From Acidimicrobiaceae bacterium (GTDB taxonomy: Bacteria; Actinomycetota; Acidimicrobiia; Actinomarinales; Actinomarinaceae), in the NCBI GenBank assembly GCA_028344675.1, contig JAOMBT010000004.1, forward strand, positions 4,692 through 68,691: 64,000 nucleotides of DNA, given 5' to 3'. The position numbers were made by a program, and so were the translations under genes. Within the stretch, counting starts at the first letter, position 1; each line of letters starts with the position of its first letter. Positions 50,197-51,914 of the stretch are shown here, one piece after another. Under the pieces are notes generated by a model. The model saw nothing but the letters and a program-made list of their open reading frames with translations, was not told where the DNA came from and did no database searches.

Positions 50197-50847
50197 TCAC
50201 CTATCAAACCTTGGCGAGATCCATGTTGATTTATAAGGAAACACAAAATCTTTTTTAAAATCTTGATATGAAAGTGGTGTGAACTGAATAATTTGTGAGT
50301 TATTTTTTAAATTATTAGGTGTAGGTATAATCATTTTTTGCTGCATCAAAATTTTTTTGTATTTATATAAATCCCTAAGATTCAGAATATTTTTTGAAAA
50401 ATATTTTTGTCTATTAAGACTTATAAAAAAAGTTAACTCTTCTTGAAGTTTGTTTGGAGCAAATTTGTGATCTTCATAAATTTTATTAGTAAATTCATCT
50501 TTATCAACCATCAATTGACAGTTGTAGGAGGTTATAGAAACTTTTCTTATATCTATTAAAACTACATCCATATCTTCATCAATTTTATTATCTTTTATAA
50601 AGTTAAACCTGTGATGACCATCTAGAATAAATAATTCATCTTTAATTTCAACTTTGTTATCATCTAAAATGAAATCGACTCCTAGAACTAGGTTTGAATT
50701 TTTAACAATATCATAAGTAATATTGCTATTCTCATTTGTTTCTTCATGGGGATATATATTATTTAATCGAAATACATTAAGTTTGGTTTTATAAGCTTCT
50801 AATGCGTTATTTTCAAATTCTATTTTTTCTACATTTCTAATTATCAT
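50197..50847 (-). CDS. Hypothetical protein, half-size DUF1015-like
   Basis: LDGHHRF and the C-terminal FPYKSTWISPRF resemble the ADGHHR and P-x-KST-y-F-x-PK blocks I recall for DUF1015. 216 aa. Its start shares one nucleotide with the serC stop. Confidence 0.35.
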   Translation of the reverse strand: MIIRNVEKIEFENNALEAYKTKLNVFRLNNIYPHEETNENSNITYDIVKNSNLVLGVDFILDDNKVEIKDELFILDGHHRFNFIKDNKIDEDMDVVLIDIRKVSITSYNCQLMVDKDEFTNKIYEDHKFAPNKLQEELTFFISLNRQKYFSKNILNLRDLYKYKKILMQQKMIIPTPNNLKNNSQIIQFTPLSYQDFKKDFVFPYKSTWISPRFDR

Positions 50848-51914
50848 TATTTGTAATTAACAAAACTATCCAGAAAAGAAATAAAATCTTCCATCATTAA
50901 TAAATCGATACTGTTGTAATTACTTACCCTAATTCCACCAACACTTCTATGGCCATTAAGACCAATGTATCCATTCTTTACACAGCTATCTAAAAAAATT
51001 GGAGTTTGCTTTTCGTCTTTAAAATTAAATACAATATTAGACAAACTCCTATACTTTTCAGGAACATCAAGTGAGAACACGGATTCATTTTTATCTAAAT
51101 ATTTATAAAGTTTTTCAGCTTTATTTTTATTTACTCTTTCAATTTCTTTGACTCCGCCTTTATCCTCAATCCAATTTAAAACTTTTAACATCACAAATAT
51201 TGAAAAAGTTGGAGGTGTGTTAAAACTTGAATTTTTATTAATATGGTTATGAGAATCTAAATAAGAAGTTAGGATATTATCTTCTAAGAAACCTTTCTTA
51301 ATTACACATATTGTAACACCAGGAATACCAAGATTTTTTTGCGCTCCAGCAAAAACATAGGAGATATTATCCCACTCAAATTCGTAAGAACAAATATCTG
51401 AAGACATATCTATTATCAAATTTTTATTTTTAAATAAACCAAAATCTCTAACCTGCACACCCTCAATTGTTTCATTAGAAGTAAGATAAATATAATCTTC
51501 ACGTTCTTGCTGTAAGCTCTTAAAAGTATTTTCAGAAAAGTTTTTTTCAAGAAAGTAGTGTGGAATTTTATCATCAAAATATTTTTGAAAGTCGTTGAAA
51601 GTTTTTCTACCCCATGTTCCTGATAGAAAAAATAATATATTTCCATTTAAACTTGGTTTATTTGAAGGAATAAAGGTATTTTGAAAAGTCGCACCGCCCT
51701 GAAGTAGGATTATGTCATATTCTTCTGGTAAATTAAGTAATTTAGCAATCTTTGATTTTACCTCATTGACTATTTCTTGAAAAGCTTCACTGCGATGAGA
51801 GAGTTCTAAAATTGAGTATCCTAAATTCTTATAATCTTTTATGTCATCACTAATTTGATTTATAACAATTTCTGGAATCTTAGATGGACCAGCAGAAAAA
51901 TTTTTAATCTTCAT
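50847..51914 (-). CDS. serC: Phosphoserine aminotransferase
   Basis: NFSAGPS, QGGATFQ and NxGxxGVT-type blocks. I moved the start from 51953 to ATG 51914 (MKIKNFSAGPS). Confidence 0.9.
   Translation of the reverse strand: MKIKNFSAGPSKIPEIVINQISDDIKDYKNLGYSILELSHRSEAFQEIVNEVKSKIAKLLNLPEEYDIILLQGGATFQNTFIPSNKPSLNGNILFFLSGTWGRKTFNDFQKYFDDKIPHYFLEKNFSENTFKSLQQEREDYIYLTSNETIEGVQVRDFGLFKNKNLIIDMSSDICSYEFEWDNISYVFAGAQKNLGIPGVTICVIKKGFLEDNILTSYLDSHNHINKNSSFNTPPTFSIFVMLKVLNWIEDKGGVKEIERVNKNKAEKLYKYLDKNESVFSLDVPEKYRSLSNIVFNFKDEKQTPIFLDSCVKNGYIGLNGHRSVGGIRVSNYNSIDLLMMEDFISFLDSFVNYK

Follow-up and report, generated by a model that had tools for sequence, protein, structure and literature searches.

The DUF1015 family has been associated with serine metabolism by Price et al. 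(GapMind 2026, PMC13759103; preprint 10.1101/2024.10.14.618325), who reported that its genes adjoin serA and serC and that the genomes bearing it are mostly without serB, and who named the family SerBK. In that work, the DUF1015 protein CBO1128 of Clostridium botulinum rescued an Escherichia coli serB::kan mutant, BT1151 of Bacteroides thetaiotaomicron was required for growth with serine as nitrogen source, and the predicted DUF1015 structure resembled SbnI, its top Foldseek match. A kinase running towards serine, with an equilibrium constant of ~4e-4, was left there as a puzzle. The related kinase SerK was described by Makino et al. (PMC5120207), and serK adjoins dehydrogenase and aminotransferase genes in Desulfurococcales. 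Here, we report the analysis of a 216-amino-acid (aa) open reading frame (ORF) that lies directly downstream of serC in DNA from an Acidimicrobiaceae bacterium of the family Actinomarinaceae, and that probably encodes a much shortened enzyme of the SerBK type, as judged from sequence comparison and structure prediction. The stretch analysed, hereafter the window, comprises 64,000 nucleotides (nt) with a G+C content of ~28% (assembly GCA_028344675.1, contig JAOMBT010000004.1, positions 4,692 to 68,691 of the forward strand). It is assigned to Candidatus Actinomarina by the names that its near-identical proteins bear.

An earlier note, made from the letters of the window alone, had likened the ORF to a half-size DUF1015 protein and proposed for it an undescribed role in serine or phosphoserine metabolism. 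The role is not undescribed, as the SerBK link to serine metabolism is already known from the publication above and its 2024 preprint. As far as could be found in the literature, what is new is a half-size family that goes undetected by Pfam, is restricted to the genus Actinomarina and has an intermediate architecture. The features considered are the following.

50197..50847, minus strand: the 216-aa ORF, putative miniaturised member of the SerK/SbnI/DUF1015 (SerBK) superfamily (ORF list, family alignment, AlphaFold2 model, Foldseek, hhalign)
50847..51914, minus strand: serC, phosphoserine aminotransferase, type 1, E. coli-like (NF003764, Pfam Aminotran_5, conserved upstream position)
50845..50849, minus strand: TAATG stop/start overlap of serC (TAA) and the ORF (ATG), read from the sequence
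50737..50751, minus strand: motif 1, P33-H-E-E-T37, with H34 and E35 invariant (HMMER and hhalign alignments)
50605..50625, minus strand: motif 2, L75-D-G-H-H-R-F81, ParB/Srx-type nucleotide-phosphate loop, with D76-R80 invariant (hhalign)
50206..50241, minus strand: motif 3, F203 to F214 (FPYKSTWISPRF), the C-terminal K-S/T-T block (invariant residues; alignments)

The ORF and its family

The stop codon of serC (TAA, 50849-50847) and the start codon of the ORF (ATG, 50847-50845) share a single nucleotide in the sequence AAA TAATG ATA, so that the ORF begins inside the serC stop, at its final base, as the earlier note had read it. Its two sequence observations were equally sound, since residues 75-81 are LDGHHRF and residues 203-214 are FPYKSTWISPRF, and its term half-size is accurate against the 369-414 aa of DUF1015 proteins from the same class. 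The upstream gene is serC: its product, which starts at the ATG at 51914 and carries the Pfam domain Aminotran_5, scores 354 bits against NF003764 (3-phosphoserine/phosphohydroxythreonine transaminase, NCBIfam; cut-off 253).

A word-indexed search returned 245 relatives of the ORF product, each of 205-221 aa, with no precomputed Pfam domains and 'hypothetical protein' as the sole name. When 1.8 billion cluster representatives were searched exhaustively with phmmer, only 39 clusters matched, the longest of 221 aa. The family alignment reaches down to 26% identity and the motifs stay invariant throughout; the invariant residues are H34, E35, L75-D-G-H-H-R80, L160, Y161, K164, I173 and F189, followed in the C-terminal part by P204, K206-S-T-W-I210, P212 and R213. 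Of 27 Actinomarina genomes, among which 12 are at least 90% complete, 26 carry one copy of the gene, and a whole-genome search found it in none of 174 other Acidimicrobiia genomes from 106 genera. With motifs beyond chance and its coupling to serC, the 216-aa ORF is a real core gene of Actinomarina.

Two irregularities were seen among the copies. In genomes G001, G009 and G023 (one to three contigs each), serC and/or the ORF look broken up or run together through frameshifts or stop codons, which may reflect assembly (indel) errors rather than pseudogenes. The serC-ORF-glycosyltransferase block of Actinomarina also appears on short contigs binned as Flavobacteriaceae/Bacteroidetes metagenome-assembled genomes (loci L013, L047, L053 and L054), and these copies are probably binning contamination.

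Homology to DUF1015 and SerK

By Pfam hmmscan, the window protein has no match to DUF1015 (PF06245; gathering threshold 25.8 bits) at E<=1. Sub-threshold matches were obtained for eight of 20 family members, with a best E of 6e-4 and, for the six given in detail, scores of 12-15 bits, and they mostly cover profile positions ~197-220, around DGHHR. Some members match ParBc_2 weakly (best E 0.007); none match ParB_N (PF02195) or SerK_C (PF18231) at E<=10, whereas Thermococcus SerK matches both.

Profile-profile comparison brought the relationship out. With hhalign, the family profile aligned to archaeal SerK at 95.6% probability (E 1.1e-8, 198 columns), to eight serC-linked DUF1015 proteins of other Acidimicrobiia at 95.8% (E 7.2e-9, 206 columns), to the common DUF1015 clade that is not serC-linked at 83.5% (E 8.4e-6, 203 columns) and to the combined DUF1015 set at 95.6%, while DUF1015 and SerK aligned to each other at 96.5-97%. 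These mutual links place the ORF family, DUF1015 and SerK in one superfamily. The DUF1015 resemblance claimed earlier therefore holds at the level of profiles and of three co-linear blocks, and fails at the level of Pfam, where PF06245 does not match the window protein. The comparisons support the ORF as a remote, half-length homologue of DUF1015 that stands about equally close to archaeal SerK.

The three blocks, PHE-x-T, DGHHR and P-x-K-S/T-T, are co-linear in the ORF family, SerK and DUF1015 with posteriors of 0.9-1.0. In the first, H34/E35 of the ORF correspond to H29/E30 of SerK and to H105/E106 of the serC-linked DUF1015 protein of locus L113; E35 aligns with SerK Glu30 and with DUF1015 Glu106/126 at hhalign posteriors of 0.96-0.99, and HMMER also aligns H34/E35 to SerK chain 5x0b. 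The substrate-bound SerK crystal entries carry mutations of Glu30 (E30A, E30Q), according to their names in the PDB. In the second block, D76-R80 correspond to D69-R73 of SerK and D188-R192 of the L113 protein (posterior 1.00). In the third, P204 and K206-S-T208 correspond to S219 and K221-T-T223 of SerK and to P349 and K351-S-T353 of the L113 protein, in which the full counterpart reads P349-K351-S-T-Y-F-x-P357-K358. Posteriors for the motif residues of the ORF against DUF1015 are 0.93-1.0 except at the last, R213 against K358 (0.61). The tail of this block, KSTWIxPR, is closer to KST[YFW]FxPK of DUF1015 than to KTTRHxLP of SerK.

Spacing sets the family beside SerK: from the Glu to DGHHR there are 41 residues in the ORF, 39 in SerK and ~81 in DUF1015. 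The ORF is without ~190 positions of the DUF1015 profile in all, its alignment beginning at position 97. Some 96 N-terminal positions and ~44 between blocks 1 and 2 are missing, as are ~25 before block 3 and several smaller stretches. In the profile alignment against DUF1015, the ORF has no counterpart of the PPYD block, which is invariant or nearly so in the non-serC-linked DUF1015 set and is also present in the consensus of the combined set.

Against PDB sequences, the close-family profile gave no matches, a more diverse family profile placed SerK on top but at E 0.16, and a profile of the C-terminal part alone did not match SerK. In a tree of four groups, the family is monophyletic, and its stem is very long, at 2.77 changes per column. 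The branches of this tree are long, its centre is without resolution and its composition strongly biased, and for these reasons it is silent on an origin by reduction of DUF1015.

Predicted structure

The AlphaFold2 model of the ORF product, built on the family alignment, has a mean predicted local distance difference test score (pLDDT) of 89.6 and a predicted template modelling score of 0.85. Searched against the PDB with Foldseek, it has exactly nine matches at E<=0.001 (E 6e-7 to 2.5e-5), all with probability 1.00 and whole-length, over 207-240 columns. The nine chains are SbnI of Staphylococcus aureus and S. pseudintermedius (5uje, 5ujd, 6nr6), SerK (5x0b/e/g/j/k) and the Pyrococcus orthologue (1vk1); the tenth match has an E of 0.88. 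A full-length serC-linked DUF1015 protein from another Acidimicrobiia genome, modelled through the same pipeline (pLDDT 94.9), matches the same nine chains at E 2e-10 to 1.4e-7, whereas all further matches have an E of at least 4e-3.

The two models thus agree in their PDB neighbours, and a comparison of this kind had been proposed in the earlier note. The same note had treated a ParB/Srx-like fold as an alternative to DUF1015 membership. This proves a false choice, as on the predicted structure DUF1015 itself has the ParB/Srx-type fold of SerK and SbnI.

Gene order around serC

In the window, the ORF adjoins serC. The same holds for 55 of the 56 other Actinomarina loci, and the one left is cut just upstream of the gene. 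In the 32 loci with a measurable junction, the distance from serC stop to ORF start is -14 to +9 nt, with 18 overlaps. The order flippase, Wzy-like 451-aa protein, serC, ORF, family 4 glycosyltransferase (GT4) and leuS is kept in all sufficiently long loci among the 56. serA is not linked to serC and the ORF in Actinomarina.

Other Acidimicrobiia encode type-1 SerC homologues with 31-35% identity to the window SerC; in nine genomes, which represent three families, the gene directly downstream encodes a DUF1015 protein of 369-393 aa. These are serA (~400 aa)-serC (~360 aa)-DUF1015 operons (loci L110-L118), in which serC and the DUF1015 gene overlap by 1-4 nt or are 3-4 nt apart where start codons are unambiguous. 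They bear out, within the class, the statement of the earlier note that DUF1015 genes lie beside serA and serC in other phyla, which is also published (PMC13759103). Because it occupies the same place downstream of serC, the ORF holds the position of a full-length DUF1015 gene, and the most economical history is that an ancestral serC-linked DUF1015 became reduced.

We also considered, and rejected, the common DUF1015 of Acidimicrobiia as a positional orthologue of the ORF. At 20 loci, this gene lies among genes for a DeoC-type aldolase and a HAD protein, tlyA, nadK, recN and pyrG, and not near serC or leuS; the right comparison is with the serC-linked DUF1015 subgroup.

On its other side, the serC start (ATG 51914) overlaps by 11 nt the end of the upstream ORF (stop 51906-51904), which encodes the 451-aa protein resembling Wzy and O-antigen ligases. 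The membrane protein gene, serC and the 216-aa ORF hence run on without intergenic space, a metabolic gene pair inside a block of glycan genes.

Serine pathway genes in Actinomarina and other Acidimicrobiia

The absence of a recognisable serB, raised as a point to settle in the earlier note, was borne out: SerB (TIGR00338, over cut-off) was found in none of the 27 Actinomarina genomes and in 49 of the 174 other Acidimicrobiia. The sole weak SerB matches in Actinomarina are HAD domains of ~695-aa proteins, which their size alone suggests to be P-type ATPases. A short SerA-like dehydrogenase (~315 aa) is encoded in 26 of the 27 genomes, for example at G000:C16:461-1369 in the genome of the window. 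It covers positions 1-312 of the 525-position phosphoglycerate dehydrogenase model and is without the ACT/ASB regulatory part; in several genomes the match reads through one in-frame TAA. serC is clear in all but one of the 27 genomes, although it is in pieces in two assemblies, a contig-end fragment only in one and unmatched in one.

A preprint entitled 'Actinomarina, resolved' (10.64898/2026.04.03.716425), which applied KofamScan to 84 complete genomes, reports serA and serB as present and serC as absent. Our results are contrary to it on two counts, in that no SerB-type HAD-IB protein was found in the 27 genomes and that serC is clearly there.

The 27 genomes are also without DUF1015 (PF06245), CysE and CysK/CysM. 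A use of phosphoserine for cysteine, as with SerK, or a route via O-acetylserine was rejected on the absence of CysK/M and CysE. Because these enzymes are missing, phosphoserine has no other visible use in Actinomarina: made by SerA and SerC, it has no visible destination but serine, and phosphoserine made by a kinase could equally return to 3-phosphoglycerate.

Among the 174 other Acidimicrobiia, DUF1015 is present in 105 of the 125 SerB-less genomes and in 15 of the 49 that bear SerB. This anti-correlation (odds ratio 0.08, Fisher p 3e-11, with kinship ignored) agrees with the published claim. The non-serC-linked clade, the commoner one, is the one concentrated in SerB-less genomes.

Proposed function and alternative explanations

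The analysis demonstrates homology, fold and conserved motifs, a conserved coupling with serC, the same position as full-length DUF1015 and the status of a core gene in a genus without SerB. On sequence and model together, the ORF probably encodes a miniaturised SerBK-type enzyme that interconverts free L-serine and O-phospho-L-serine with an adenine nucleotide, alongside SerC. It would be a two-domain phosphotransferase of the ParB/Srx fold, acting as partner of the SerC made from the same message and of the unlinked short SerA. By analogy with SerK Glu30, Glu35 may be the catalytic base; Glu30 itself reportedly has this role, in the account of Nagata et al. 2017. The DGHHR loop and the K206-S-T208 block would hold the phosphates of nucleotide and substrate, and the protein would join serine to 3-phosphoglycerate through phosphoserine in Actinomarina.

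If this molecular function is right, the direction of net flow is a separate matter. Since SerB is absent, a main role in serine supply is slightly favoured, at a little under an even chance, with the protein standing in for SerB in the way that CBO1128 can in E. coli. A main role in the use of scavenged serine or glycine for 3-phosphoglycerate comes close behind, and the smaller share left falls to operation in both directions. A further and more tentative proposal is that the 216-aa protein may be the sole route from phosphoserine to serine in Actinomarina, with ADP or AMP instead of water as acceptor of the phosphoryl group, and may represent the minimal core of the SerK/SbnI/SerBK superfamily.

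Several points weigh against this assignment or its serine-supplying form. The family stays below the gathering thresholds that Pfam sets for DUF1015, ParB_N and SerK_C; identity to characterised proteins is just 12-19% and TM-scores are moderate (0.5-0.6). Adjacency to serC within one genus, inside a conserved block of glycan genes, is a single evolutionary observation. The serine-forming direction is thermodynamically unfavourable, given the equilibrium constant of ~4e-4 (PMC13759103). Eight of the nine genomes with a serC-linked DUF1015 operon also carry SerB, so the closest positional relatives are not simple SerB replacements; this speaks for a role of the serC-linked subgroup as kinase or in assimilation and suggests two DUF1015 subgroups with different roles. 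Actinomarina also encodes other candidate phosphatases, namely 3-6 proteins of the histidine-phosphatase family and one 211-aa HAD-IA hydrolase. One of the candidates for an alternative phosphoserine phosphatase is a 409-aa protein with two tandem His_Phos_1 domains, found in ~15 of the 27 genomes (in the genome of the window at G000:C23:75005-76231, plus strand, outside the window). It recalls the PspA-PspB heterodimer and matches PspA below threshold (137 bits, cut-off 350), with a sub-threshold match to CobC as well.

The alternative that survives best, possible though clearly the less probable account, keeps the molecular function and refines its direction: the protein would be a one-way serine kinase for assimilation, from serine through phosphoserine and 3-phosphohydroxypyruvate to 3-phosphoglycerate, with any phosphatase step that is needed performed by the PspA-like histidine phosphatase or the HAD-IA enzyme. 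The characterised relatives SerK and SbnI all act towards phosphoserine (PMC5120207; PDB names), this direction is favoured thermodynamically (PMC13759103), and the absence of SerB would prevent a futile cycle. Amino acids are scavenged by Actinomarina, for which GlyA is reported in 84 of 84 genomes (preprint 10.64898/2026.04.03.716425), and both the phosphatase candidates and the SerB of the eight operon-bearing relatives fit such a scheme. However, a DUF1015 protein does rescue E. coli serB::kan (PMC13759103), SerB-less genomes are strongly enriched for DUF1015, and the tandem PspA-like protein was seen in only about half of the Actinomarina genomes (~15/27), with a score far below its cut-off (137 against 350 bits).

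An improbable alternative is a true hydrolase, in which the kinase fold has turned into a phosphoserine phosphatase that transfers phosphate to water instead of a nucleotide. The thermodynamic problem raised in PMC13759103 would then vanish, and the long branch (stem of 2.77 changes per column) and the loss of ~190 residues relative to DUF1015 make altered chemistry conceivable. Yet neither the catalytic Glu nor the nucleotide loop DGHHR nor the KST block varies within the family, as is expected where nucleotide binding is retained.

Still less probable is a role in glycan synthesis, whereby the ORF product would modify or phosphorylate a sugar or polymer together with the flippase, the Wzy/O-antigen-ligase-like protein and GT4, the adjacency to serC being historical. 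The block from flippase through the 451-aa membrane protein, serC, ORF and GT4 to leuS is kept whole with genes that overlap or abut, and the ParB fold binds diverse nucleotides (PMC12704722); on the other hand, the order of serC followed by the homologue recurs in serA-serC-DUF1015 operons without glycan genes, SerC is a bona fide equivalog match, and free serine is the substrate of all the structural neighbours. Very unlikely is a protein with no tie to metabolism, be it a ParB-like DNA-binding protein or nuclease or a switch controlled by nucleotides: the weak ParBc_2 matches (best E 0.007) and the former description of Pyrococcus furiosus 1vk1 as a ParB-like nuclease (PMC5120207) are outweighed by the absence of helix-turn-helix (HTH) and dimerisation domains, the low rank of ParB proteins among the Foldseek matches (PadC, E 2.6), the lack of any match in PADLOC (defence systems) and a C-terminal domain and KST motif specific to SerK and DUF1015.

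The SerBK-type assignment provides a function that can be tested for a core gene whose product is named only 'hypothetical protein', in an uncultured marine lineage of very high abundance; Actinomarina is among the most abundant bacteria of the surface ocean. The assignment closes, or recasts, what looks like a gap in the serine pathway of this genus. It also implies that SerBK-type enzymes can shrink to about half their size and escape Pfam, so that surveys of serine gaps based on PF06245 miss them. A natural 216-aa form with three blocks only and SerK-like spacing offers a convenient minimal subject for the question of SerBK chemistry, that is, whether it is a reversed kinase, ADP- or ATP-dependent, or a hydrolase. 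If the protein were the sole route to serine, with the phosphoryl group passed to ADP or AMP, the last step of serine synthesis would conserve the phosphate bond.

Comparison with described systems

Canonical partition ParB has an N-terminal ParB domain, an HTH DNA-binding domain and a C-terminal dimerisation domain; the ORF has no match to Pfam ParB_N or to an HTH, and its best ParB-like Foldseek match is PadC at E 2.6. SbnI, the ATP-dependent L-serine kinase of staphyloferrin B biosynthesis in S. aureus (5UJE, 5UJD, 6NR6), is the best structural match of the ORF (E 5.7e-7, TMq 0.59, 218 aligned columns). It differs in its siderophore cluster, in an identity of 14-16% to the ORF and in an extra C-terminal regulatory, heme-binding region.

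SerK (Thermococcus kodakarensis TK0378, PDB 5X0B-5X0K; P. furiosus PF0380, 1VK1) is an ADP-dependent kinase of free L-serine. At 242 aa, it shares with the ORF a two-domain architecture, a near-equal motif spacing (39 against 41), conserved Glu30, DGHHR and K221-T-T223, a whole-length Foldseek match (E 3e-6, TM ~0.5) and an hhalign probability of 95.6%. Identity is 12-13%, the ORF lacks the Pfam ParB_N and SerK_C matches, and KTTRHxLP stands in place of KSTWIxPR. SerK feeds cysteine synthesis, whereas Actinomarina is without CysK/M, and it is archaeal and thermophilic, whereas the ORF belongs to a mesophilic marine actinobacterium.

With SerBK (CDIF630erm_01132 of Clostridioides difficile, CBO1128 and BT1151), the ORF shares the co-linear motifs PHE-x-T, DGHHR and P-x-KST-aromatic-x-x-P-K/R, the same PDB fold neighbours (SbnI and SerK), a profile-profile probability of ~96%, a gene directly downstream of serC with stop/start overlap, and a lineage without SerB. 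It differs in having 216 aa against 370-420 aa (369-414 aa for DUF1015 of the same class), in lacking the N-terminal PPYD segment and a linked serA, in falling below the Pfam threshold and in forming its own long-branched clade restricted to Actinomarina. As read from the alignments, the architecture of the ORF is intermediate between SerK and DUF1015, with the size and spacing of SerK and the C-terminal motif and genomic position of DUF1015.

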